From Felis catus (taxonomy: Eukaryota): a stretch of DNA of 64,000 nt. Position 1 is the stretch's first letter. Each line of letters starts with the position of its first letter. Positions 2,727 through 64,000 of this stretch are shown one piece after another. The position numbers and the translations under genes are program-made. Below the pieces are notes generated by a model. That model had not been told where the DNA came from, made no database searches, and saw only the letters and a program-made list of their open reading frames with translations. The DNA lies in contig NC_058368.1 of assembly GCF_018350175.1 (NCBI RefSeq), positions 81,284,001 to 81,348,000 on the forward strand, in the 5' to 3' direction.

Positions 2727-2762
<36 letters not shown>
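2727..2762. repeat. (CA)n microsatellite
   Basis: Direct reading. Confidence 0.95.
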
Positions 2763-2764
<2 letters not shown>

Positions 2765-3389
2765 CATGTCTTCCTTATCCGTCAGCTATGGATGGACACT
2801 TGGGTTCCTTCCAACCTTGGCTGTTGTAAATAGCACTGCGGCAAACATACAGGTACATGTATCTTTTCACATTTGTGGTTTTGTTTCCTTTGCATCAATA
2901 CCAGTAGTGGAGTTAGTTTGGTAGTGGAATTATATGGCAGTTCTATTTTTACCTTTCTGAGGCACCTGCATACTGTTCTCCACAGTGGCTGCACCAGTTT
3001 GCATTCCTACCAGCAGTGCAAGAGGGTTCCCATTTCTCCACATCTTCGCCAGCACTTTTTATTTATTGTCTTTTTGATTCTAGCCGTTCTCACAGGTGTG
3101 AGGCGCTATTTCATTGTGGTTTTGATTTGCATTTCCCTGATGAGGAGTGTTGTTGAGCATCTTTTCATGTATCTGTTGGCCATCTGGATGTCTTCTCTGG
3201 ATACATATCTCCCGTCTTCTGCCCATTTTTAATTGATTGTTTCACTTTGGGTATTGGATTGTATCTGTTCTTTGTATATTTTGGACACTAACCCTTTATC
3301 AGATATGTCACTGGCAAATATCTTCCCCCATTCAGTAGGCTGCCTTTCCGTTTTGCTGATTATTTCCTTCACTGAACAGAAGTTTTTAA

Positions 3390-21040: not shown

Positions 21041-22819
21041 CATGCCCTGTATGGGGGAGACCCAGGAAGCTGCCCCCCTTCCCAGATGGGTGGTGATGTC
21101 ACTGTCCCTACAGCCGCGTCACTGCATACACGTGAGTTTAGAAGGAAATGTGAAAGTAGCTGTTATTCAGAGTGGTAGAATTAAGTATGTATTTTCTTTT
21201 CTCTAATCCTCCAATTTTATCTAATGCTGATATCTCATGTACATTTTTGTGAAGGTTAATAAAAGAAATTCATAGGCTAAGTGGGTTTTCAGATCCGAGT
21301 AACCATGTTACTGCTGGAAGGCCCTGGAAATGCCTGATTCCACCCACATGGCTGGTGAAGGCCACACCTGCAGCCTCTCTCCAGCCAGTCAGAGCCGTCA
21401 CTCACCCTGACGTGGAGGTGTTTCGGCACCCTCTGAGATTCTAGGCTGGGGACGAGCGCCTGCCCCCATGACAGCGTCACCCCAGCATTCTCTGGTGTCC
21501 ATCGGGGGTGTTGGAAAGACAGTCAATACAGGTGGTGCTTTTTTGAAGGGTGACTCTTCCCCTGGCTGCTTTTCAGTTCTGTCTTTGGTCTTTGGAGTCC
21601 CACTGTGACACACCTGCCATGGCTCCCCCTTCATCTATCCCGCTTAAAGTACACTGGGCTTCTTGAATCTGGGTTGGATGTCATTTAATAGTTCTGGAAG
21701 ATTATCGGCCATTGTGTTTTCCACTATTTCGTTCTCTGTATCCACCCTTCTTGGGCTTGTGTGTCTTACACTGTTACCCTGGGTGCCCTCTGTCCCTTAC
21801 CTGTCCTCTGGCATTCTCACTGTCTGTCTGTCCATGGTGATGTTTGGATGGGCTTCTGAACCAGCTCCCAATCTCTAGCTTTCTCTTTTGCTCTGCCTGA
21901 TTTGGTCTCCAGTCTATCCAGTGAGTTCTTGGTTGACTTGTCATTTTCAGTTCTGAATTTTTAAAAATTCCTATTTCACATTCTGTAGTTTCCAATTCCC
22001 CGCCCGTTGACTTCAGTGTGGTTTGATCTCTTACAACACAGTAAACGCAATCACCGTAGAAACCACACCTACCAACTTCTGTACCCGGACCCGCTCCCAG
22101 GCTGCTGCTGACACCCTGGGTCCTGCTTCTCACTCCCAGTGTGTCGTCCCTTCGTGTCTGCTGGTCTCCGGCTGTGTGCTGGACACAGTGCTCTGAGGAA
22201 ATCACTGCAGGCCTAGAGTGATGTTGCCTTCCCTCAGGAAGATTTTTATTTGCTCCCGGAGGTCACAGGCAGAGGTAGTGGTCTGGGACCACCTTAAGCC
22301 AGCGTCAAGCCCCGAAGTTTCCTGGGCACCAGTTGGTTGAACTACGGAACTCTGCAAAGCTGCTACGGCTTCCTCTGCCGAGTGCCAGCTGGGGATGGGG
22401 GAGTGGGGGACGCTTTAGCAAAATTCTCCAATCTGGTGGGCCCCAAACTCCAACCTTTTCCCTTGGCTCCATAGGGCCACCAAAGGCATACTTCAGTCCC
22501 TGTCTCTGTTCAGTCAGTGCCTAGAAGATCCAAAGAGGCCGTCCAGGCCAGAGTCTGTCTCTGGGCTCCAGTCCTTTCCCAGATGTGGTGCAGTAATGTC
22601 TCAGTCTCTTATTACTTCTCTGATGCTTTAAAAAAAATGATTGTGTTTGTTTTCCAGTTTGCTCAGGTTTTTGGGTGATCCTCTGTGGGACAGAGTAAAT
22701 TATATAGTCAGTATATACTATGATATGTGCCTTTATGATTTGCAAATTATATTTGAATGTAATTTTGTATATCATAAATATATATTATACTTGCTTTCAT
22801 AATTTGCAAGTTATATTTG

Positions 22820-48696: not shown

Positions 48697-49875
48697 ATGT
48701 ACAGCATGATGATGGAGACCGACCTGCACTCGCCTGGCGGCGCCCAGGCCCCCACGAACCTGTCGGGCCCGGCCGGGGCGGGCGGCGGCGGGGGTGGCGG
48801 TGGCGGCGGCGGCGGCGGCGGCGGGGTCGCCAAGGCCAACCAGGACCGGGTCAAGCGGCCCATGAACGCCTTCATGGTGTGGTCCCGCGGGCAGCGGCGC
48901 AAGATGGCCCAAGAGAACCCCAAGATGCACAACTCGGAGATCAGCAAGCGCCTGGGCGCCGAGTGGAAGGTCATGTCCGAGGCCGAGAAGCGGCCGTTCA
49001 TCGACGAGGCCAAGCGGCTGCGCGCGCTGCACATGAAGGAGCACCCGGATTACAAGTACCGGCCGCGCCGCAAGACCAAGACGCTGCTCAAGAAGGACAA
49101 GTACTCGCTGGCCGGCGGGCTGCTGGCGGCCGGCGCGGGCGGCGGCGGCGCGGCGGTGGCCATGGGCGTGGGCGTGGGCGTGGGCGCGGCGGCCGTGGGC
49201 CAGCGCCTGGAGAGCCCGGGCGGCGCGGCGGGCGGCGGCTACGCGCACGTCAACGGCTGGGCCAACGGCGCCTACCCCGGCTCGGTGGCGGCGGCGGCGG
49301 CGGCCGCGGCCATGATGCAGGAGGCACAGCTGGCCTACGGGCAGCACCCGGGCGCGGGCGGCGCGCACCCGCACGCCCACCCGGCGCACCCGCACCCGCA
49401 CCACCCGCACGCGCACCCGCACAACCCGCAGCCCATGCACCGCTACGACATGGGCGCGCTGCAGTACAGCCCCATCTCTAACTCGCAGGGCTACATGAGC
49501 GCCTCGCCCTCGGGCTACGGCGGCCTCCCCTACGGCGCCGCGGCCGCCGCCGCCGCCGCCGCGGGCGGCGCGCACCAGAACTCGGCCGTGGCGGCGGCGG
49601 CAGCGGCGGCGGCCGCGTCGTCGGGCGCCCTGGGCGCGCTGGGCTCGCTCGTCAAGTCCGAGCCGAGCGGCAGCCCGCCCGCCCCCGCGCACTCGCGGGC
49701 GCCGTGCCCCGGGGACCTGCGCGAGATGATCAGCATGTACTTGCCCGCCGGCGAGGGCGGAGACCCGGCGGCGGCCGCGGCGGCCGCGGCGCAGAGCAGG
49801 CTGCACTCGCTGCCGCAGCACTACCAGGGCGCGGGCGCGGGCGTCAACGGCACGGTGCCCCTGACGCACATTTAG
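48697..49875 (+). CDS. SOX1: SRY-box transcription factor 1 (SoxB1 HMG-box protein), single exon, 392 aa
   Basis: ATG at 48697 ([13 protein letters not shown]...), TAG at 49873-49875. HMG box [42 protein letters not shown]...YKYRPRRK (~48844-49074), SoxB motif [11 protein letters not shown], Gly15 tract, poly-Ala tracts, His-Pro repeat, VKSE SUMO-type motif, C-terminal TVPLTHI. The ORF-track start at 48334 is a GTG in the leader. Confidence 0.99.
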
Positions 49876-52100
49876 GGACGCGGGGACTCTGCGGCCCGCG
49901 CCCACGACGCGCGACGAGGGAGCGCGCGGCCCGCCCCGGGCGGCCTTGCTTTTGTACAGACGTTTCCACGTTCTTGTAAAGAGGAAGGCACTGGCGACGA
50001 GCGCGGGCGACCCGCGGCCCCCACCTCCCCTTTGCGGGAGCTCCTGGGGACCCGCCGGGCGCAGACACCGCCGTGCGGTCTAGGCCGACTTCGGGGCTTT
50101 CTTGAGACTTTTTGTACAGTATTTATCACTCACGGAGGAGGCGGAAAGCGTTTTCTTTGCGCGAGGGGACAAAGGCCAAACCAAGCGAGAGGCGACTCCC
50201 AACTTTTCTATCCCGGCCGGCGCGCCCCCTCACCCTGCACCGCTTCCTGGCGCCGTTTGGTCGCCCGAGACCCGAGGCTCGGTGCCGGGAGCTGTGCTCG
50301 TTCGTTATTGATGTAGTGAGGCAGATCCAGACACTTAACGACTTTTTTGTAGTTGTTACCGCTTTTTTTTCCCCCCCTTTTTTCTTTTTTTCTTTTTGGT
50401 TGGTTAATTTATACACAGATCTCCCCAGTGCTTTCGGGTGGCCGCGTTATATTCTGGGTTTTGTAAAACTTTCTGTATCTGAGCATTTCCATTTTTTTTT
50501 GTTTTGTATTATTTCTTGTAAATGCATTGTGAAATTTTTATTTTCGGCGTTGCGGTGTGGGGAGGGGGATTCAGATTATGTACATAATTTCCTAAAAAGC
50601 CTTTCTTCTAAAAACGAAAAAAGACCTCTCCTTAAAACAAAAAATGCATCGAGTTTTGAGTCAATAAATTTGAGAGAGAAAGAGGGAGAAAAAAGCCCAG
50701 TTTTCCCCTGTAATTGGAACGTGCTAATTTTATATGCATGTTTTGTGACTTTAAAATACAATCAGTAAATCAGAAGAAGGAGAAAGAGGCGTTATCAGCA
50801 TAAACTAAAAGTGAGAGACTCCCCGGGGGAGGGGGGTGTGTGTGTGGGGGGGGGAGATACGATCTTCATGGAGCTCCCTTCAGTGGAAGGGAAGAAACTT
50901 AAAATCGATAGATGGTTTTGTAGCATTTACAGTGTTAATACGGATCAAGAAATAATGACCAGGTTTCTAGTCTGGCCCTTTGGTGTGTTGTTTCTAACCG
51001 CGGGCCCACATGGCTGCTTCTGCGTCCCCGCAGCCTAGGATCTCTGCCGAAGTTTGGTCTGCAGGACGAAGGAGACCCCGATGGCGGCACCAGGCCCCGG
51101 ACGGATGACCTCCGTGGGGTCACGGAGGCCTCCAATTGCCCCACAAGTAACAAGATTGCAAATGGAATTTATCTGAATTTGTCTCAAGGGAACACACTTG
51201 GAACCAAAATGTAGTGCAACCGAGCCCCCTCCGTCCCTCCTCAGCCCCTCCCTCTGGCTTCTTTCTCCTTGGGAAAGGGCAAACCGATCAAGAATTCTCT
51301 CTCTTTCTCTCCCCCCCCCCCAACATAAATACACAGCACACTCACTCTGTACACTCACTCCACCACCCCCCTACCCGCAGAGTGAACTGGGATACACAAA
51401 ATGTGTTTGTTATTCCTAAGGAGATCAGAGGGTGTTTGATGCTTTAAATTTTTTAATTATATTTTTTCTAGGTGTTTATGGGTACACTGCAGTTTTTTCT
51501 GGAATTTCAAGTTTTCTGTAAAACTTTGTCTTCAAGTAACCTGACAGCATTAAATACTGCATTTAAAAGTTATACTGTAGCAAATACGTTTTGAAATTAG
51601 TCACAACATAAAGATGAAGTTACGTTCTGGGGGAGAAAAAAAAGCCCTGAGGCCACATCAAAACACGTTGACTTCATCAGCTTTAGGCCTCCTCCTTCAT
51701 TTTCTTTTCTTGTCCTGGAATGAGCAGAGACCATCTCTCCAAAAATGGGCCTGTGCTCCTAGGTTAACGAGAACCTCCTTCAGCCTGCGTTGGAGAATAG
51801 CTTTAAGTAAAACGCTAAACTGGCAATTGACATGTGTCTTTTTTGGAGTCGTTTTGATAATTTGGCTTAAACCATGCATTTTTTAAAGTGACTGCAAAAA
51901 TTTCAGGAACGATGTCCACTGCTTCTTTCTAACAGATAATAAAGTCCCCTCTTTTTTTCTCTTTTCTTTTATTTAAGCAATCTGATCCTTTGTGACACGG
52001 TGGCCCTTGAAAGTGTTTGGATATGTGTGGATTGCTGAGTGGCACAGCATCAGGAAGTAGTCTGGGGATACATGAATAAATGCCACACAACCCTCTGGGA
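49876..52100 (+). other. SOX1: SOX1 3'UTR with candidate polyadenylation signals
   Basis: U-rich sequence after the stop codon; AATAAA at 50663-50668, 51938-51943 and 52075-52080. The true 3' end cannot be fixed from sequence alone. Confidence 0.6.
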
Positions 52101-52879
52101 GATGCTTTGGGAAATTCGGTAATGCTCTGCTAATTCACCACACCCAGCTTAAGGAGCGGGCCACATGGCTCTGAAACGTAGGTTAAACGGACTCTCTCCG
52201 TGCTTTTGCTAACCCTAATCCCAAATGTCCCCGCACTTATTAAAGCGGCACACAGATGTGTGGTTGTGGCCACAAGTGTGTACGCCCCTGGTTGGTATCT
52301 GTGCTCAGCCACTGGCATCCAGATCCTGGCTCATCCCCCGTATTAGTGATGTGGTCACACTCGTGTGTCAGACTGAGAAGTGTAGCACCGGGCAGGAGTT
52401 CTGGACACAGCTGTCCCTGGGTCTCCCCGAAGGTGGATGTAGGACATTTTCCCGCCTGTGCGGCATACAGAGCCGAAATTCAATGCCAGGTGCTGGGAGC
52501 CACTTCTGTTAAAAACCCAGGAAGATCTTAACATAGGAATTCCTAAAATCCCGCGAAATTTGTTGTGTTGATTAGAACGACATGGAGAAAAGCAAATAGA
52601 GATCCGTGAATGACTCCATTAAAAATAAGCCGGGATGGGGGGAGCAGCCGGTGGCTGGGATGCACGTCGGGGCTGAGACCCTGGCTCTCCAGCAGCGTTT
52701 GTGCGGTTTACACTCGTGGAGAAAATATCCCACTAGGCCCTGGAGATGGCTCGCTCGCCTGCGAATTTGGTTCTCGTCAAGGTTCCTCCTCATGACATTC
52801 AGGAAACCAACCGGGATCTGAGGACTCTGATATGATGGCTTCATTCACTCCCCCAATCACAGGGTGCTTGTTCTCCCCA

Positions 52880-55280
52880 CAGCTTCGTCCCGTCTTTGCT
52901 GCAGAACCTGGCGCAGAACGCGGACAGGACTCGCTGGGGAGCCGGGTGCAAAGTTTGCAGAACTTGGCGCAGAAGGCGGTTCTAGCCGCGGGTGGCACGG
53001 TTTGCCGCGGGGGGGGGGGGGAGTTGTCTGGTTTCCCACCACCTGTATTTAAAACGAACAGGCCCTTTTTGTGGCTGCCCTTGGGACTTGACTCCAGCCC
53101 CCCCGCGCCCGGCCCGGGAATCCCACAGTAGCGAGATGCCATGCACTGGCCGGAGAACCAGCGCCGGCAGGCGCGCCCGTTCTGCAGATGTGGGTCGGGA
53201 GCTTGGCTGACGGGTCTATTAAAGGCGCGCGTGGGAGAAGGCTCGCACGCACGTTCACGCAGTTCTTTTTCCCGACAAAGACTCGGCCACGCAGAGCTCT
53301 GTCTCCGGAAAATTCCGCTTAATTCGAGAAAGCATCCGGGGCCCCGGGAGGCGCGATCCAGGGCGGCCGGGCTCCGGCACCCGCCGCCCGCCCGCGGCCC
53401 CCCTCCCCGCGGCCCCTCCCGGCTCCCCCCTCCCGGCTTCCGCAGCCTGGCCCGCGGGGCAGAGGCTCCAGAAACGTCGGCGGCAGAATGTAATAATAGG
53501 TTTGATTCCTTGGAAACTTCAAGTGAAAAGCAGACTTGGCCTTGGCGCAGCCCCTTTTCCAGCACGACTCTTCGGCGGGATTGAAATGCTGGGCCAGAGA
53601 GGAGGGGAGAGGGGCGCAGGCCCCCGGGGCGAGCAGCCGAGGGGGGTGGGTCCGGTCCCCGCCCCCGGGGCCTGCAGGGTCGCCCCCCAGCCCGACAGCG
53701 GGGCCCGGCGGAGAGGGAGGGGGGCTCGGAGCCCGCGTCCCCGCCCCTCCTCCGCCCCCCGCCCGGCCCTTCCCCTCCAGCTGCGCGCCGCCCGCCCCCG
53801 GGAACCCAGCGGCGTGGGCGGCGGGGCGCTGGGGGCGCGGCCCGGGTCCCCTCCCGGCGGGGGGCGGGGGCGGCCGGCCTCCGGCCCCGCTCGCCGCCCT
53901 TCCCAGGCCCTGCTCCGGCGGAGCCCCGGCCGGGACGGCTCCCTGGCCTTCGCGCCCCGCTTGCGTCCTCCCCTCTCCGCGGTGCGCACCCCTTCCCGGC
54001 CCGCCAGCCGCCCGCCTCCCTCCGCCTTTACCTCCGTCCCCTCCCGCCTCCGACTCAGTCCCTTCCTTTCTCCGCGCGCCCGGCCTCCCTTTGTCCTCGC
54101 CGCGTCCGTCTCCGCCCCGCGCCCCGGCTGCTGCTGCCGCCGAGTCGGGTCGGGGTCGGCCGGTACCCGGACGTGGCCCGTCGCCCCCCGCTTGCTCGGC
54201 CGCGTCCCCACCGGCTCGCGCGGGAGGGGCGGGGACCCCGGCAGCGACCCGGAGCCCCGCGTCCGGGCCGCCCCGACCCTCCCGGTGCAGCCTGGGCTCC
54301 GGGGCTGGCGGTGTCAGCCGCGGGGGATTAAGGTGACTGATGCGAGGGAAGAGGCAGAGTGTTTTTGTGTTTAAAGAGAGCGGGATTAGTAGAGAGAAAG
54401 TCCTGACCCGGGGTCAGCTGCAAGTCAAACCCTTTTACAATCAGCGGGCGGAACAAGCGCGTCTCCGGGCCGGGCCGCAACACGTGGGGGGAAGGCGGCG
54501 GGGCGGAGGGCGGCGGGGGGGGGGGAGAGGGGGACCCGTACCCCCAGACTGCGGCATCCCCGGACTGTGGGGTGGAGAGCGGGGGGGGGGAGGGACATGG
54601 GGGTCCGCACCCCCGGACTGCGGGATGGAGGGCAGGGGGAGGTGAGGGTCCACAACCCCGGACTGTGGGGTAGAGGGCAGGGGGAGAGGGGGGCCCGCAC
54701 CCCCGGATTGCGGGGTGGAGGGCGGGAGGAGGTGAGGGTCCGCACCCCCCGGACTGTGGGGGGGAGAGGGGGGGCCCGCACCCCTGGATTGCGGGGTTGG
54801 AGGGCAGGGGGAGGTGAGGGTCCGCACCCCCGGAATGCCAGGTGAAGGGCTGGGGGAGAGGGGATCCGCACCCCCGGACTGCGGGGTGGAGGGCGGGGGG
54901 AGAGGGGGCCGAGATTAGGGACTGGCACTCCTGGCCAGAGCGCGCACTGGACCGGGCGAACGGAGGGGGCGCGGGGGGGGGGGGTCGCGAATCACCGCGG
55001 TGCGGGTTCGGAGCTTTGCAGGGTGGGATTAGCTGCCCATCAGAATTCCTTCCAAGCCGGAATGCCTGCGTCTGCCGTTTCCTGGGCCGTCTCCCGCTGC
55101 TCCTCGGATGGGAGCCTGGGGAGAAGGCCTGATGGGCTCCCTGCTTTAGGGGCTCTGTCTTACTAAAGCAGCTCTTTTTCCGTAAGAAACCCAAACCGAA
55201 AGCCCAGGCCCTGGGGCGAGGGGCGCTTCCCGGCCTCCCGTCCAGAACCGTGGCCTCACTTAGGCCCTTGCAAACCCAGA
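52880..55280. promoter_or_regulatory. Downstream CpG island
   Basis: Dense CpG/GC; includes a G-rich minisatellite. Confidence 0.85.
54530..54910 (+). repeat. G-rich ~45-bp minisatellite, ~8 copies
   Basis: Unit GGGTCCGCACCCCCGGACTGCGGGGTGGAGGGCAGGGGGAGGTGA with variation. Confidence 0.88.
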
Positions 55281-56859
55281 TCGGAGGCGGAGGCGTGTAG
55301 CAGTGAGGGCGGGGGGAATATGTTAGGACCCCCATTGTCCATCAGGGTGGAGGAGTGAGGCCCTCATTTGGGTTATAAACCAGGCGTTTTTCATCAGGGA
55401 GTGAAATCCCCTGGCGGCGGGTGGGGGTGGGGCGCTGACCTCAAAAGTAATGAAAACTGGAGTTTGGGGGGAAGGATGAGAGGGGTCAGGAGAAAAGAAC
55501 AGAACAGAGATAAATTTGTCTTCCTTAGCAGTCAGGTTCAGAATTTATGCTTAAGTAACACCAAGTTTTGACAAATATGAAAAACAAGGGAAAACACGAC
55601 AAGCAAACTATCCATCCCATATAGAAAAAGGTCATCTATCTTGGTAAACAAACAAACAAACAAAAAATCCAGGATTGGCACACTTTTCTCTAAGTTGGCT
55701 TTTCGTCTTTAAATGTGAAAACATCGACACCAAATTGAGAGAGAGAAAGCAGGCTTACAAACACCACAAAAGGAGGGACTGGGAGTGAACCCAGGCCCTT
55801 CCTGGGGCAACACCGGGTGCCCTGGCGGCACATGGGCTCCGGGTTCAAAACCAAGTAGCCAAAACTCGCCAAGTAGCTCAGGAACTTGCTAAATGTAACC
55901 GATGGGGAAAATTGGTCTGTGACAAAAACTCTGGACTCTGAGAGTAATTCTGGATGCCCGGCAGGCAGCTCCAAGGCTTTAATTGCCGGCAGCCACTTCA
56001 GAGCAGCCACGCGGGCACATTAAAGACGTTTGTCAAGAACAGGTCACATGCAAAGTCTCGAAATAGTCAGCCAGTCAAATCAGTGGAAAAAATCAGCTTT
56101 TGTTAGATTTTGCAGCTTCAGGAATTAGGCATTCACTGCAGAGCTGCGGTTTTGAGAAATTGCAATGTCAGGCATGTTCCCAATGGGGAAATATTGTGAA
56201 CGTGGAGGAATGTAAGATTGGGTCTGACAATGGGGAAACTGACAAGAGGTATCACCCAGACATTGTTTTCTCTCTGAGCACCCCGAAATGCTAACTAGAG
56301 ACGATATCTAGAGGCAGCAATAGCACTCGCAGTTCGTCCTACGCACTTGAGACCTACGGAAACAAGAGTCTCACCGGCCTGGAGTACTGACCCAGGACTT
56401 CCTACGATGAATCCCAGAATGTAGGGCAAAGTACCCGATAGGTAGACACAACCACAAACACGACACCAGCAGGAAGAAATTCAAAGCAGAGGCCAACTTG
56501 TCTTTTTATTTCTAAGCAACAGAATAGGAGGAGAGCCAGGCGAGCGTCCTTTAACCCGGAAAAGAATTTAGAACCCTCTTGCTTTTAAGTCATCCAAACT
56601 ATCGGGGGAATTTTCAGGACATGGAAAAGCCCAAACTTCAGCAGTAAATTTACCGTGAATTTCCGCGTAGAGATCGACGCAGAAGCTTCGCTCTTTGTGT
56701 TCAAAACCGAACTGAAGAGTGAAGTTGATTCCTGTAAAAATTGGCTATTTGCGTTTTCACCCTACAGGGAAATGACAGATGTGTGCTCAAAGAAAAGGAA
56801 GAATTTAGGTGAAAAGTTAGTCAATATGGTATTTGTCGTATTTCTAATGTCTGTTGAAC

Positions 56860-57095
56860 CGTAGCACAGCAACATGGGAAAGAATACAGGATTTGGAGGA
56901 AGACAGGATTGCAGTTGAATCCAGGCTTGGCATGTGTCAGCTCATTGCCCTTGATCAAGTGTCCTTCTTCTGAGTCCATTTTCTCATATGCAAAAAAGAA
57001 AGACTAGAACCCACTTCATAAGAATATGGTCAGGATTAATGATGTAAGGAGCATGCTGCGTCTAGCAAAGAGTAGACCGTCAGTAAGTGGTCACT
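56860..57095 (+). mobile_element. MIR SINE relic
   Basis: GTTGAATCCAGGCT...CTTGATCAAGT...TCTGAGTCCATTTTCTCATATGCAAAA...AGGATTAATGA. Confidence 0.7.
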
Positions 57096-58957
57096 TGACA
57101 TAGAAGCCTGTGTCGGCCCGGGCAGGGGTACAGTGGGACATCAATGCCAAATTTGGCCTGAGTGGGAGCAGTGTTAATTGTATGCGCCAATACAGTGCGC
57201 CGATATATTCATATTAATAACAACCCGTCTTTAGAGTTACGTGACAACCATCCTATTCATTCATTCATCTGTTCAACAAATACCAGTTATGGGCACATTG
57301 TACATCCAGGTTATCACAGGAGCACGTGTGTGTGTGTGTGTGTGTGTGGCCAGGTGCTGGGGCTCACTACCCAGTGGGTGGGACTCATTGTCACATGAAC
57401 GAGTACGTTATTGAGGGCGACAGTTGGGGGGCAGAGGTATCTGCTTCATGCTGCCTGATCATTCGTGCCCCATTTGGGGGAATCAGGGAAGGCTTCTCAG
57501 AGGAAGTGAAAGATGGAAGCCGGACATCCTGGTGCTGCTCCAACATTCCCTGTCGCCAGTCTTGACACGAGGCGTAGGCACTGCATTTCTGTACACACCA
57601 GTGAAGAGTGCCACATAAATTTGAGCAGAGGATACACGAGAACCGCTTTGTTTTTCAGTGAACTGCTAATGCAGATTGGCTCTGAGCTGTCAAAGATGTA
57701 GACTCAGAGGTTCACTCTGGCAGCGGGCTCCCGTCTTCAGGGTGCACAGGACACGGGAGAGCTTGCTTCACATCCAGAATCAAAGACCCCGTGCCCCTGA
57801 CAGGCCAAGCCTGGGGTTCCAGTGACACCCGGGATCTGCACCATCATAGGCACACCCAGACGAGGTGAGACGGGTCCTGCGTGATACTGGGAAACCGGTG
57901 TCAGGGGAGAGGCCCCCAAATTTGTATGATAAATAGAGCTGCTAAAGCTGTGTCTAGATCATTTAAATTCAAGTAGCGATTTATTACTTATAAAGTGCTC
58001 TTACCTAATTGTTCAATTACATGACTTTTGAAAAAAATTGAATTAGCGAGAGAAGAAAAAAATTTAAGCTGGATTATTAGAATGTCATAAAGAGGAAGGA
58101 CTGACTGATTTACTGCCTTTATTTTCTGTTTTCCAACAAATCGTTCTGGCTGCCTGTAAAGAACTTTGCCGCTCCTGAACCACAGTTAACGTGAAAACAC
58201 CACGAGCATATACCACGCACTCGCCTTTTGCTTTTCAGGGGCCAAAGCATTCGTGTCGGTTAGCTGAGAGTAATTTTAGTGGCACGTGACATGGAAGGAG
58301 GGACATTTAATAGTGCCCATGAGATGGGATAAATCAGCTTAACTGGATAGGTCATGATTATAACAAAGTGCGGTATCATTAGTTTCTCCATACTGTCATC
58401 TGTGAAATGGGAATATTTTGTTGTTAAAAAACCTTGATCCATTCACTACTTTAAACATCTTTGTGCAAATCGAGGGGCTGCCGTATGAACAAGTAAGCTG
58501 TATACACGGGCTGTGCTACATCTACAAAGCACGCAGTTCTGCTTTATGGACGTCCCTATTACCGCCGATCACAGTAAAGACCGCATTCCTGCTGTTGACA
58601 GACACAGATGTGGATTAAGGTGTGGTTGTGGGAGAAATCGTGACCTATGTGAATGGCATGTGAGAAAATAAATTTTAAATACAAGATAATGAGAGAAAAT
58701 GTTCCATAAAAAAGAATCAAAACTGTGTTGGTAATCTAAGAATTCCAGTATGGGTTTTAGGTAATTTCAGGACACAAGGTGTCGTTCAGGAAGTCTAATA
58801 ATCTATGCATTTTAACTATAGCTTTTTGGAGACAGTGACTTTGCCTTTGTTGACTAAATCATTCATAATTTTAACAGATGAGAATGTCAGGCCAGACACT
58901 CAGGCCCCTGTAGATAGTGGGGAGGGCGGAGTTTCTTAAACTGACTCGTTCTGAATA

Positions 58958-59770
58958 TTATCACATGTGATTAATACCACTGTTGCCCCTAGTGCCACCA
59001 TCACGTGCATGTCCCTTTTCTGTTCCCCACAACACCCAGAACGGGGGATGCTCTGTCACCACGTGGCGAATCCAGAGGAAAGAAAATCCTGCACTCGGAA
59101 AGGAGGCATGTGCAGGAGCGGAGTTGTTTATATTGGAGCCAATGAAATGAAGAGAGAAGAATAAAAATTGAGCAAAGTAAAAATCTAGGGTGGCTCTGAC
59201 CACAGGATTGCTCCTGGCCAACACCATCAGACTCAGCCTCTGTGGGGACAGTTGGGAGAGGTCCTGGGGCTGCCAGCATTTACAACCAAAAGGGTCACAA
59301 AGCTACTGACCGTATTTTAGTAGGTCCTTAGCATATGGGCTTACGTGTCAGTATGTCACCTGTAATTCTCTCCGAGATGCACGGATTTAAATTTGGTTAT
59401 GATAATCTGAGTAAGATACTAATGTAAAAAACTTTCCTGATCATTAAAAAAAAATTGTTTTAGTCTTTCAAAGTTAGAATACTACTGGAAATGTATTCTC
59501 AATTTTAAAATATGAACTATGAAATTTGGAAAACAAACTAAAGTATGCACTTGCTAAGGGGAATTATATAAAAGCCTTGAGATAATTAAACCATATTTTA
59601 TTCCCCAAAACAAATATATCACCTGTAGGCACTACTTGCAGAACGCTAAAATTGTATTTAAAATCACAGCTCAAATTTGATTATGCATGTGCATTAAAAA
59701 TAGATCATTTAAAATCAAGCTACAAGCTACAAGTTCAATATAAATATGAACAAATTAAGTTTTAACTGAA
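58958..59770 (+). repeat. Large inverted repeat, left arm
   Basis: Reverse complement aligns to 61725-62243 plus 62701-63004. Confidence 0.93.
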
Positions 59771-61724
59771 TTTGAAACAGTTATGATTATAAGAAATCAG
59801 GTTTGGAAAAAAAAAACATAACATTTACAATAACATTTTAAGGTGAAGTCGTCACATTAGGGATTTATTTAAACTTAACGTCCAGAAAGGGGCCAGACCA
59901 GCATGCTTCTGCCTGAAACCCTGCCAGAGAGGAGAGCCCCCAACAGCCTCGTGCAGGTGAAGTCTTCGCCGGCCAGAACAGCTTTGGAGAGAGCAGGTAT
60001 ACCCCTGGCAGTGACCACATGGAAGGCCTCACTCCCAACATCACCAAGGCTCCTGGAGACCAGAAACTGATTGGCTTGATTCCCCACCATCAGCAGAGTT
60101 CCGAGCACCTCGTACGGGGAAAGCAGCCATTCACCGAAGTGAATCCATGCAGAAGGGCACACGTAGGGGTATAGGCTGCTGACAAGGAACCAGAGAGAGC
60201 AAGGCTGGCCTCAGCCGGGGCCCCCTGCATCCCCAGGGGAGGGCCCAGTGTCACGTGTGATGGTGTGAAGGAGAGAAGGCCCCTCGGGGACTCAGCATAG
60301 TGCCTGCCACATCTCAGGACACGGGGAGCAGTAGTGTCTTTGTGGCCGCTGTTTTTGTGGTTCTTCGGGAGATACAGAACGCAAAATCGAGGCTGGAGAG
60401 CAGGACACGCCCTCCCGTGGCCTGGTGCTGAGGCAGCAGAGGCTCCGGAAGAGTAAAGCTCTCTCACCTCCATGTCCCATAAAACGGGACTGAGGGGCAG
60501 TGGAGGCCACGGGGCTTGTATTTCAATTCTGAATTCCCCAAGACCTGCTCTGTGATTCGGCAGGTAGTGGGGTGCAGGGAATGTTTGTTAGTCAAGTGAG
60601 GTGTTATGACTGTTGTATTGCGTTGTGCAGCGTTGTGTCTTGCGGTTTCATGCTGTGCTGTTTCGTGTTCTGTTGAGGTCAAGGGGTTCTCTCAGGACCA
60701 TCAGGGCAAAGTCACACCCGGCGTGCAGAGATGGTCCAGGCACCTGGCGAAAAGGAAGCATGGCAGGGACGAGGCGGTCACCTCCGGGGCTGCAAGGCAG
60801 AACTGGGAGCCTCCTGGTAGGAGTCACACAGTGGGGACATTACCTCTTCCTGCTTTAATCATACAACTAGCAAGGAACCTAGGAAAGAGCTTATGGGGAC
60901 CCGCCTCACGGCAGTGACCCTGACGTGGAAATAGGTTGGCAGCTGGCCGGTCCCAGCCAGCACTGTCTCCAGATGCTCACCTTCTCGCTCTTCTTCGTAA
61001 CAATCCTTGTCGCAGTGTGAATCTGACCTGTAACCTGCTTGTGTGTCTGAAATGTACAAACCTGGGAAGGTACTTCCTATAATTAGAGTGGTGGGTGTCG
61101 GACCGTGCAGAGGGAGGCACAGGGCACCCGTACTTGGGGACAGGATGGGCCCAGTGCCCTGTCCCAACTCTGTCCCTACTGTGCTTTCCCACACTGTGAG
61201 CAGAGGCACCCTGGGGGCCCCCGCAGAATCAGAGAGACTGCTCAGGATGTTTACACTCCAAGGGAACACAAGAATCCTGGCCACTCGATCAGATGCCATG
61301 TGCACCCTGCTTCAAGGTAGTCCACCATCTGAACGTTCCTTTCTGGCCAGATCCCTCTGCTGGCATCTGATCTTCGTGAAACTGGGTTTTCAGCAGCTGC
61401 TGTGTCAAAAGTAATTTGCATGGGAAACTCGGAGTGGACCCAGAAAGGAGGTATCAGGGTCCAACCTGATCCCACGTTGGCAGAGGCGTGCAATATGCAG
61501 ACTGTACACACGGCCGCTGATCAATAATTGTGGCTGATGGGGAGCAAAGTGAAAGTGAATACTTTTTCACTCAATTTATGTAATTAAAAAATTGTCACTG
61601 AGTTATTAGCACATACGTGTTTATTAAGTTGTTTAGACTTACCTACTTAACAATCAGAACCGTTAGATACGTCTTTTGGCCTGGGGCACTCTAAATAATT
61701 ACTGGAATGCTAAGAGGGCGCTAA

Positions 61725-63004
61725 AAATGCATACAATTCAAATTGATATGGAATTGGTAGCTCATAGATTGACGTAAAATTATTTTTGCTTTTATTATAT
61801 CAATACAAAGGCATCATTTAATTTAAGCTGCAACTTTAAATATAATCTTATTTTTCTGCCAATACTTACTACAGATGATGTATTCATTTTGGATAATCAG
61901 TGGTCTATTTTAAGAATTTTTTATAAATTCCATTAGTAAGTGATAATATCCCTTGTTATCCAAATTTCCCTTTTTTAAAAAACTGAGAATACATTTCCAG
62001 TAGGGTCCTCGGTTTGAGAACAGAGGTAAATGATTTATTTATGCTTAAATGAGAATAAAGTCTTTACGTTAGTATTTTACTCAGATTATCATAACCAAAT
62101 TTAAATCCATGCATCTCGGAGAGAATTACAGGTGATAAAACACAGACACATCAGTCTGTGTGCTGAGGACCTGCTAAAATATGGTCAGTAGCTTTGTGTC
62201 CCTTTTGGTATAAATGCTTCCAGCCCCAGGATCTCTCCCAACTTTCTTTTCTTTCTTAAATTAAAAAAAAAAAAACATTTTTTTTTACATTGATTTATTT
62301 TTGACAAACAGAGTGAGACAAAGCATGAGCAGGGGAGGAACAGAGAGAAAAGGAGACACAGAATCCGAAGCAGGCTCCAGGCTCCGAGCCGTCAGCACAG
62401 AGCCCGACAAGGGGCTCGAACCCACAAACTGTGAGATCATGACCTGAGCCGAAGTCAGTCGGTTGAGCCACCCAGGTGCCCCGTTTCTTAATTTTTTTTA
62501 AATGTTTATTTATTTTTGTGAGAGAGAGACAGACCATGAGTGAGGGAGGGGCAGAGAGAGAGGGAGACACAGACTCCAAACAGGCTCCAGGCTCTGAGTT
62601 GTCAGCACAGAGCCCTACACGGGGCTCGAACTCATGGACCTCGAGGTCGCCACCTGAGCCACAATCTGATGCCCAACCGACTGAGCCCCCCAGGCGCCCC
62701 TCTCCCAACTGTCCCCACAGAGGCTGAGTCTGATGGCGTTGGCCAGGGCAGGCCTGCATTCAGAGCCACCCTAGATTTTTGCTTTGCTCGATTTTTATTC
62801 TTCTCTGTTCATTTCATTGGCTCCAATATAAACAATTCCATTCCCGCACATGCCTCCTTTCCGAGTGCAGGATTTTCTTTCCTCGAGATGTGCCACATGG
62901 TGACAGAGCGTCATCCCCCATTCTGGGTGTTGTGGGGAACAGACAAGGGACATGGACGTGATGGTAGCACTAGGGGCAGCAGTGGTATTAATCCCGTGTG
63001 ATAA
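61725..63004 (-). repeat. Large inverted repeat, right arm (interrupted by SINEs at 62244-62700)
   Basis: Reverse complement of 58958-59770. The ORF track shows the same peptide on opposite strands (58961..59227 - and 62540..63001 +). Confidence 0.93.
62244..62700 (-). mobile_element. Two tandem CanSINEs, one nested in the other's A-tail
   Basis: Two SINE bodies ending at 62482 and 62700; outer TSD ctctcccaact (62233-62243 / 62700-62710); inner TSD tttcttaa. Confidence 0.93.
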
Positions 63005-63731
63005 AGGGCCAAGCGGCTGGTAGTTCAGGGTGTGAACGGGAACTTCAAACAGCACAGGGTCGGCGGGGCCCTCAGCGTCACTCTGAAACCAAAACATGTG
63101 ATTCACCACTCTCGTTCTTGCAAGTAATTATATTTGTCGTGTATTCAAATCAAATATACGCAAATAGGAGCAAATGCCTCCCTTGGAAGAGGCAGCTGTC
63201 CGTCATGTACGTTAACTGACTTTCTTCAAAAGCTCTTTGGTATTTTAAGTTATCTTACTTCCTGTTTTGGTTTTGTTTGTGTCCCTGGAGAGGCAGTGGG
63301 GGGGGGGGGTTCGCAGGGGCGGGAGGGCGGTGGGACTTAGATCAGCAGTTTGTAGGACCCACGTCCAAGCAAAACGTGAAAGGCTTTGGGCTCAGCGTCT
63401 GTTTCAGCCGGTTCAGGGATGTGAGTGGTTTCTATACTCACTACAAAAGTACTCAGGTTCGCCCGTGGGAGCCAGGGCTCTGGTATGAACATGGAATTGT
63501 GTTTGAAGTACAGATGACTGAAATCCTTTGGCCCGATGGATTCACTACAGTGACTGGAACATGGGAACAAGGAGAGAACATAATTCAGGCCAAAAAGTAC
63601 ACAGAATGTTAAGAAAATGATCAGGAATGAGGGGTTACCCAGAGCTCAAGTGGATGCAAAGCAGAGGGAGTCAGAAGGGTCACCCTGGAGCCACGGAAAC
63701 ATGAGAAAGTCAGGGAGGCGTCCCTGTGACT

Positions 63732-64000
63732 CGGAGGCCACGCCTGTACCACAGAGGTCTCACTGCACCACTGAAGCCACCCTGGCAACTCGGAGGCCAC
63801 CCCTGAACCACAGAAGCCACCCCTGAACCATGGAGGCCACCCCTGCACCATGGAGGTCACCCCTGAACCACAGAGGCTGCCCCTGAACCACGGAGGCCTC
63901 ACTGCACCACAGAGGCCACCCCCACACCCCGGAGGCCACACCTGCACCATGGAGGCCACCCTTACACTGCAGAGGCCACCCTCACACCCCAAAGGCCACC
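63732..64000 (+). repeat. 20-bp minisatellite running off the window end
   Basis: Unit GAGGCCACCCCTGAACCAYR, ~13 copies visible. Confidence 0.9.

Follow-up and report, generated by a model that had tools for sequence, protein, structure and literature searches.

An inverted repeat with two strata of arm-to-arm identity downstream of a SOX1-type gene in Felis catus, and the possible origin of the strata in past gene conversion

An inverted repeat positioned 9 to 13 kb downstream of a SOX1-type gene in the cat genome has arms that are much more alike in one part than in another, raising the question of whether the arms have exchanged sequence since they were duplicated. The repeat was examined in a window of 64,000 nucleotides (contig NC_058368.1, positions 81,284,001 to 81,348,000; positions below are those of the window) and is real, with arms at 58958-59750 and 63004-61737. 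The 2.0-kb spacer between them (59751-61736, 1,986 bp) has no convincing self-complementarity (10 of 200 shuffles as good for its two halves) and no Pfam or Rfam match. The gene, which is outside the repeat, is a single-exon SoxB1 open reading frame on the forward strand (48697-49875) with Pfam SOXp and HMG_box domains. Its protein scores 0.98 against the nearest Atlas cluster, "Sox-1b", and 0.97 and 0.96 against SOX-3 clusters; we take the gene to be SOX1. Used as a query, the C-terminal portion of this protein returned four distant, uninformative loci on contigs of 2.6 to 8.0 kb, sharing 35 to 49% identity. Degenerate patterns of the arms matched nothing in viral, metagenome, or prokaryote genome contigs, where single-copy mammalian sequence would hardly be looked for, and this negative carries no weight. 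Judged by title or the start of the abstract, full-text searches whose scope left out subscription journals and bioRxiv supplements returned no published account of the repeat; inversion catalogues in those sources may include the locus. The word "inverted" does not occur in two papers on SOX1-OT, and the human-chimpanzee inversion tables of PMC1270012 contain no number with the provisional coordinate prefixes of the locus, which is a weak negative.

Using blastn, 58958-59261 was aligned with 63004-62699 at 90.6% identity. Across the 788 aligned pairs, a single change point at left position 59437 and right position 62056 separated a core with 429 of 478 pairs identical (89.7%) from an inner flank with 225 of 310 (72.6%); its likelihood ratio of 38.4 was equalled in none of 1,000 permutations. 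On the left arm (forward strand), the core, or young stratum, spans 58958-59436, with the change point at 59423-59437 according to the scoring, and the inner flank, or old stratum, spans 59437-59750. The inner flank of the right arm (reverse strand) was placed at 61737-62056 by the change-point alignment and the pair-HMM. Inner-flank similarity reflects true homology (local score of 223, where shuffles averaged 42 and none of 500 was as good), which stops at L59750/R61737 in the pair-HMM; deeper into the spacer, no homology beyond chance was found (144 of 500 shuffles as good). Neither stratum contains a further change point (p = 0.64 and 0.71) or a trend (p = 0.98 and 0.35). Across six alignment schemes, a step was better than uniform identity by 27 to 55 AIC units, and better than a smooth gradient by only 2 to 16 units. 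The initial annotation had proposed an identity gradient unlike the uniform divergence expected of a single duplication. The inequality persists on formal alignment, and a uniformly ageing single duplication is rejected by the permutations; a smooth gradient as the clearly better description was dropped, as one step fits slightly better. The 54 of 72 identities previously counted between 59605-59676 and the reverse complement of 61821-61892, ungapped, were exact, whereas the 90 to 96% given for the core was too generous, with about 90% measured overall and 83 to 98% in ungapped pieces.

Base composition was ruled out as the cause of the step, as A/T and G/C sites both differ between the strata. 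The inner flank is AT rich (27% GC, against 46% in the core, 44% upstream, 48% downstream, and 52% in the spacer); however, non-CpG A/T sites were mismatched at 18 of 251 positions in the core versus 40 of 216 in the inner flank (p = 2e-4), and non-CpG G/C sites at 15 of 191 versus 32 of 78 (p = 7e-10). The AT-rich end of the core has 74 of 78 positions identical at 32% GC. Overall, the non-CpG distance was 0.079 (0.054-0.111) in the core and 0.296 (0.228-0.380) in the inner flank. The core is a bounded stretch more alike than the homology adjoining it, beyond what chance and composition provide, which is the pattern by which a gene conversion tract is recognized. Within it, 46 of 475 sites are mismatched, there are six indel events, and the longest identical run, 39 bp, is as expected by chance (null mean, 42.2); no long identical tract pointing to ongoing conversion is present. 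Mismatches are clumped in 20-bp windows (dispersion of 1.54 against 0.86, with 99% of permutations lower, approximately p = 0.01), and there is a borderline excess of adjacent mismatches (8 versus 4.3, p = 0.051).

The initial annotation of this feature makes no mention of a 456-bp insertion (62244-62699) that interrupts the right core. It consists of two head-to-tail SINEs (approximately 62272-62483 and 62484-62699, reverse strand), presumably of a carnivore-type family, and dispersed members of that family elsewhere in the window match them at approximately 82% or less. The insertion is flanked by an 11-bp direct repeat (62233-62243 and 62700-62710), and the left arm carries the same 11-mer once (59250-59260, forward strand) as an empty target site. 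Identity is similar on either side (p = 0.26), at 266 of 291 positions in the outer part of the right core (62700-63004) and 152 of 173 in the inner part (62057-62243).

The SINEs also provide two clocks, non-CpG divergence and CpG loss, based on 13 hand-picked copies with approximately 100 sites each. Non-CpG divergence was 7.5% in the core (33 of 442 sites) and 8.5% in 21 young SINE pairs; for 6 pairs of older SINEs the figure was 20.2%. CpG sharing in the three groups was 0.32 (3 shared and 13 unshared sites), 0.39, and 0.06, respectively. By both clocks the core resembles the young SINEs in age, while the inner flank, at 24.5% non-CpG divergence, is on this measure no younger than the older SINEs. 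One of the inserted SINEs differs from its family consensus at 13 of 102 positions, where divergence of the core would predict 3.7% per copy (p = 1e-4); taken at face value, it would be older than the reset of the core, but eight of the 13 differences are common to other copies.

We give slightly better than even chances to an old inverted duplication in which the outer approximately 475 bp would have been reset by non-allelic gene conversion around the time of the SINE burst, followed by drift. The first event would be an inverted duplication, 800 bp or longer and no later than the older SINE subfamily of the window, that placed its arms 2 kb from each other. A double-strand break in one of them may, much later, have been repaired from the other arm on the same chromosome, possibly flipping the spacer, with one or a few overlapping tracts overwriting the outer approximately 475 bp. 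The overwriting would have stopped at the outer limit of homology and, on the inner side, in an AT-rich stretch close to 59437 with many indels; it would date to about the spread of the young SINE family. The two SINEs would then have inserted in the right core, with no later tract fixed across that point, and both arms would have drifted neutrally, like ordinary methylated DNA. Published tract estimates are mostly 50 to several hundred bp (PMC3924818), and conversion rates among Alu copies are described as raised within 10 kb (PMC6598467); the tract size and arm distance here are within these ranges and thus count for conversion. Against it, a donor 73 to 80% identical falls short of the approximately 200 bp of identity at which conversion in yeast is described as efficient (PMC3924818), and the clumping of core mismatches, the fit of a model with 8-bp invariant blocks, the older-looking inserted SINE, the small size of the SINE sample behind the clocks, and the narrow margin of step over gradient are further adverse points. 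The mismatches in the core, its chance-length longest run, and the SINE insertion in one arm only fit a past reset and drift rather than continuing homogenization. Arm-to-arm copying, as first suggested for this locus, is the best single explanation, but the view that the arms are kept similar was overstated.

Whether old homology flanks the core on both sides is clear for the inner side and borderline for the outer, where it depends on a match between 58770-58842 (forward strand) and 63213-63284 (reverse strand). This possible remnant, approximately 92 bp off the core diagonal with 43 of 78 columns identical, consists of three collinear words of 7 to 8 bases (58770-58777, 58787-58794, and 58820-58826 versus 63284-63277, 63264-63257, and 63234-63228), one of which we take to resemble an ETS site. 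The words exist and are collinear, as initially noted, but they are significant only under a chain statistic built to suit them, which was equalled in 7 and 1 of 1,000 shuffles and by 96 of 2,612 and 22 of 2,615 real unrelated window pairs, after removal of 16 and 13 high scorers of 2,628 as presumed repeat-family pairs. Ordinary local alignment of the outer flanks was equalled in 87 of 500 shuffles and, in further runs, in 171, 127, 54, and 112 of 300, and an anchored pair-HMM in 5, 6, and 23 of 60, and a match in direct orientation outscores the inverted one (33 versus 26; 7 of 500). Between the remnant and the core, no alignable sequence was found (257 of 300 shuffles as good). Thus, of the weak flanks noted originally, the inner one is clearly distinct from shuffled sequence and the outer one is borderline.

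The outer flank bears on both of the leading alternatives. Selection on a regulatory module, the likelier of the two although unlikely in itself, would make the whole repeat one age, with both copies keeping sites that control SOX1 and the core evolving at roughly one third of the rate of the flank. The proximity of a developmental transcription factor gene suits this explanation, as do a conserved mouse enhancer further out, at +35 kb (bioRxiv 2025.08.08.669284), the clumping of core mismatches, and the borderline outer words, which look like isolated conserved motifs. It would require approximately 63% of the 475 sites to be invariant in both copies; models with blocks of at least 15 bp predict longer runs than the 39 bp observed (p = 0.011 or less) and are rejected, while 8-bp blocks are compatible (p = 0.12 to 0.68). 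The core has, moreover, taken its indels and the SINE insertion, 13 of its 16 CpG sites differ, as among young SINEs, and the arms share no CTCF-like site: with a consensus pattern, the one match, at two mismatches, was in the right arm, and the 30 matches across the window compare with 22.6 expected by chance. Outward extension, which we judge a little less likely again, holds that the old repeat comprised only the 310-bp inner flank and that the core is a younger duplication with no older counterpart, approximately 475 bp of unique sequence having been copied across by one-sided strand invasion or template switching from the inner homology. The young stratum is outermost, its identity is flat, it ends abruptly at 58958/63004, and under most tests nothing alignable lies beyond; a duplication with an unrelated deletion beside an inversion has been described in human reads (PMC5829575). 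A rarer nonhomologous end would be required, and the outer three-word chain, if real, is older homology past the core.

Two other explanations have less to recommend them. Two independent insertions, in opposite orientation, of a noncoding part or LTR of an old transposable element, later partly converted, would need no local duplication and would suit the AT-rich inner flank. We regard this as improbable, as there is no third copy in the 64 kb, none of the six frames of 58600-62243 matched a Pfam family, and none of the six frames of 58600-60101 matched L1 ORF1 or ORF2, although an L1 fragment from the same window used as a positive control matched ORF2 at an E value of 8e-39. As these ranges contain no remnant of ORF1, ORF2, or a transposase, coding fragments of L1 or of another transposon were rejected as the source of the arms. 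Less probable still is that a transcript across the repeat, such as an RNA overlapping SOX1, folds the arms into double-stranded RNA whose pairing is maintained. Human SOX1-OT overlaps SOX1 and reaches past it (PMC5641280), and the arms are predicted to pair if cotranscribed (-546.5 and -285.3 kcal/mol), as would those of any such repeat. Selection for RNA pairing, raised in the initial annotation, found no support, with G.U versus A.C differences on the forward strand of 19 to 12 in the core (p = 0.28) and 14 to 18 in the flank (p = 0.60). Both strands pair about equally well, the core alone folds ordinarily (z = 0.04), and 50000-64000 has no Rfam match at E values up to 1.

Comparable inverted repeats at FLNA-EMD were reportedly described by Caceres et al. 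in 2007. The locus is like these and the primate X palindromes in having inverted arms, a spacer, arm-to-arm exchange as its favored explanation, and shifting boundaries (PMC8327919 and PMC8981503). In those systems, arms of 8 to 140 kb share more than 99% identity, still undergo conversion, and mostly contain genes, whereas the arms here measure 0.8 kb, have identities of 90% and 73% in their two strata, and contain no recognized gene. An actively homogenized palindrome of the X/Y type was rejected, as the core falls below the threshold of >99% (PMC8327919) and lacks long identical runs. The short inverted repeats and few-kilobase spacer, able to flip by recombination between arms, also recall human polymorphic inversions, which break in high-identity stretches (PMC3961182); the longest identical run here is 39 bp, inversion is hypothetical, and SOX1 is not named in the main text of that paper. 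The closest likeness is to interlocus gene conversion, with a sub-kilobase, high-identity tract inside older homology and copies less than 10 kb apart; in the known cases, conversion is between nearby duplicates or transposon copies (PMC3924818 and PMC6598467), and the arms beside SOX1 are at most putative genes or transposons. In place of paralogues clustering by species, we infer conversion here from one genome, and the candidate tract is old, having diverged again by approximately 10%.

Also unlikely, ranking between outward extension and a transposable element origin, is that the arms are a mammal-old inverted pair of SOX1 modules of approximately 1 kb each, outer motifs included, which recurrent conversion matches and whose 2-kb spacer it flips in many lineages, the SINE having uncoupled the arms in a cat-like lineage. 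If true, the locus would parallel the FLNA-EMD repeats on a small scale, with no genes in its arms and a neural master gene as its neighbor, and would be a natural experiment on an insertion ending the concerted evolution of enhancers. If the arms proved to be conserved and regulatory in mammals, copying or flipping between SOX1 enhancers would be an unusual route of regulatory change. On the gene conversion reading, which we prefer, the repeat would be one more fossil of an ordinary mechanism and of minor importance, but it is a tidy test case, as its two strata, together with a SINE insertion in one arm only, provide an internal time order.

A single-exon SoxB1 gene on the + strand at 48697-49875, whose nearest Atlas cluster is Sox-1b (score 0.98), is read as a putative SOX1, and an inverted repeat lies 9.1 to 13.1 kb downstream of its stop codon. 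Self-comparison of the window aligned 58958-59261 with 63004-62699 (90.6% identity) and 59247-59750 with 62246-61737 (73.4%); the two pieces are a single left arm opposite an interrupted right arm, with a spacer at 59751-61736. This is the one inverted pair in the region, and no third copy of the arm was found in the 64-kb self-comparison. Pattern scans for the arms in three microbial and viral collections, where mammalian single-copy DNA is not to be expected, gave 0 matches, and a scan anchored on the SOX protein yielded four distant loci. The interruption of the right arm (62244-62699) consists of two head-to-tail SINEs with an 11-bp direct repeat on either side (62233-62243 and 62700-62710). 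As the same 11-mer occurs once in the left arm (59250-59260), entry of the SINEs postdates the duplication, and it appears that no exchange across this point has been fixed since, as this would have deleted the insertion or copied it over. Within 62244-62499, the A-rich tail of the outer SINE (62484-62699) seems to have received the inner SINE (62272-62483), which has a short repeated word on either side; the outer SINE would then be older. One ~210-bp SINE family, which we take to be of the carnivore type, was found by self-comparison in many copies across the window. Other repeats include a G-rich minisatellite (45-bp unit, 6.9 copies) at 54601-54902, within the CpG island that lies 3' of the SOX gene, a second at 63732-64000 (20-bp unit, at least 12.6 copies) that continues past the window end, and 98 bp of weak self-complementarity (65%) at 22694-22791.

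With the SINE insertion taken out, the arms gave 788 aligned pairs, which split at left position 59437 and right position 62056 into an outer core (429/478 identical, 89.7%) and an inner flank (225/310, 72.6%). The likelihood ratio of this split (38.4) was reached in 0 of 1,000 permutations, bearing out the uneven identity proposed in the initial annotation, whose count of 54/72 for an inner block was exact on recounting. Neither stratum contained a second change point (P = 0.64 and 0.71) or an identity trend (P = 0.98 and 0.35). Across six scoring schemes the change point fell at 59423-59430, and a step, its change point counted as one parameter, was better than uniform identity by 27 to 55 AIC units but better than a smooth gradient by only 2 to 16; two strata therefore describe the pattern better, by a small margin. 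Base composition was rejected as the cause of the step, as the inner flank was more diverged at both non-CpG A/T sites (40/216 mismatched versus 18/251 in the core) and non-CpG G/C sites (32/78 versus 15/191), while the innermost 78 core sites were 74/78 identical at 32% GC. The inner flank is true homology, with a local alignment score of 223 against a shuffle mean of 42 and none of 500 shuffles as good. Transitions in this flank (59437-59750 versus 61737-62056) were few (33 versus 52 transversions), which may be alignment noise near gaps, as one ungapped block gave 15 versus 11.

Faint matches outside the core had also been proposed. Three such words are present and collinear (58770-58842 versus 63213-63284), offset by about 92 bp from the core diagonal, but they reached significance only by a chain statistic built to fit them (7 and 1 of 1,000 shuffles as good, 5 and 0 of 292 other real segments, and 96/2,612 and 22/2,615 real unrelated pairs, 16 and 13 of 2,628 pairs having been dropped as presumed repeat-family pairs) or when the windows were picked beforehand (2/500). 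By local alignment 87/500 shuffles, and 227/570 and 241/570 real segments, were as good; four other alignment schemes gave 171, 127, 54, and 112 of 300, and an anchored pair-HMM, with the inner flank as control scoring 69.4 versus -9.6, gave 5, 6, and 23 of 60. An unrelated direct-orientation match in the same flanks reached 7/500. The words are possibly an outer remnant of older homology.

Thirteen SINE copies chosen from self-comparison matches (nine of a younger type, four of an older) were aligned as a clock. The core arms differed at 7.5% of non-CpG sites (33/442) with CpG sharing of 0.32 (3 shared, 13 unshared), and the young SINEs outside the repeat (seven copies, 21 pairs) at 8.5% with sharing of 0.39; by both clocks the core looks about as old as the young family. 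The inner flanks (24.5%, 72/294) look no younger than the older type (six pairs, 20.2%, CpG sharing 0.06). Core identity was similar either side of the SINE insertion (266/291 versus 152/173, P = 0.26). One inserted SINE differs from the consensus at 5/96 sites and the other at 13/102, whereas the divergence of the core predicts 3.7% for each copy (P = 1e-4 for the excess at 13/102); the latter would speak against a simple order of reset and insertion, although 8 of its 13 differences recur in other copies, pointing to subfamily structure or decayed CpGs. The outer SINE carries eight weak-to-strong and four strong-to-weak non-CpG changes (9 and 14 summed over seven copies elsewhere), an excess at few sites for which either subfamily structure or GC-biased conversion at this spot may account.

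The most likely mechanism, which we hold with moderate confidence, starts from an old inverted duplication whose outer ~475 bp would have been overwritten, by one tract or a few copied from the other arm while a break was repaired, roughly when the young SINEs multiplied, both arms drifting ever since. A 30-bp low-identity patch (59327-59356) that immediately precedes the best-matching block (59356-59428, 96%) may have escaped conversion, as an island flanked by two tracts. Alternatively, a shorter repeat may have been extended outward later by one-sided copying, which is unlikely on its own; taken together, these two forms of arm-to-arm copying, the idea of the initial annotation, are likely. 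Past copying is favored, but continuing homogenization is unsupported: conversion still in progress would be expected to show as an extended stretch without mismatches, and the longest identical run in the core is 39 bp (null mean, 42.2). The matching ages make it a fair guess that exchange ceased because of the SINE insertion.

Selection on paired enhancers after one old duplication is somewhat unlikely. It requires about 63% of core sites to be invariant; a model with 8-bp invariant blocks fits the core (P = 0.12 to 0.68), but simulated blocks averaging 15, 30, and 60 bp gave longer runs than observed (P = 0.011, <0.001, and <0.001). Core mismatches are clumped beyond a uniform spread in 20-bp windows (dispersion 1.54 versus 0.86, P about 0.01), as motif-scale constraint, a tract mosaic, or alignment noise near indels would alike produce. 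Six indel events, a tolerated SINE insertion, and CpG loss like that of SINEs lean toward neutral drift of the core. Selection for pairing, also raised initially, fares worse, and an RNA stem is extremely improbable: G.U pairs in the core showed no excess over A.C (19 versus 12, P = 0.28), both strands pair similarly, the core has no unusual fold, and no Rfam match was found over 50000-64000. That the arms are two old noncoding transposon copies is very unlikely. Coding remnants were rejected, with 0 Pfam families in six frames over 58600-62243 and no L1 match in six frames over 58600-60101, while a control L1 fragment from the window matched ORF2 at 8e-39. An L1 ORF2 C-terminal remnant lies on the - strand at 2761-3231 (E = 8e-39 versus solved ORF2), and a second, inverted fragment at 4972-5282 matches it at 62%.

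No description of this repeat was found in the open full-text literature searched; no entry matching the presumed coordinates of the locus was found in the human-chimpanzee inversion tables of PMC1270012, and two SOX1-OT papers use the word "inverted" 0 times. Nonallelic gene conversion tracts span 50 to several hundred bp (PMC3924818) and are favored between copies within 10 kb (PMC6598467), conversion is observed beside inversions between inverted L1s (PMC5829575), and in human inversions between inverted repeats the breaks fall where identity is high (PMC3961182). The repeat works like such conversion between close copies, unlike actively homogenized palindromes, whose arms are described as 8 to 140 kb and >99% identical (PMC8327919, PMC8981503) and among which it is not a member. 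Mouse Sox1 has a +35 kb enhancer (bioRxiv 2025.08.08.669284). It is quite improbable that paired SOX1 enhancers flip-flop throughout mammals and were frozen in this lineage by the SINE. The structure is a real inverted repeat of two ages, best read as carrying a fossil conversion tract and as a further example of a known process, nonallelic gene conversion.
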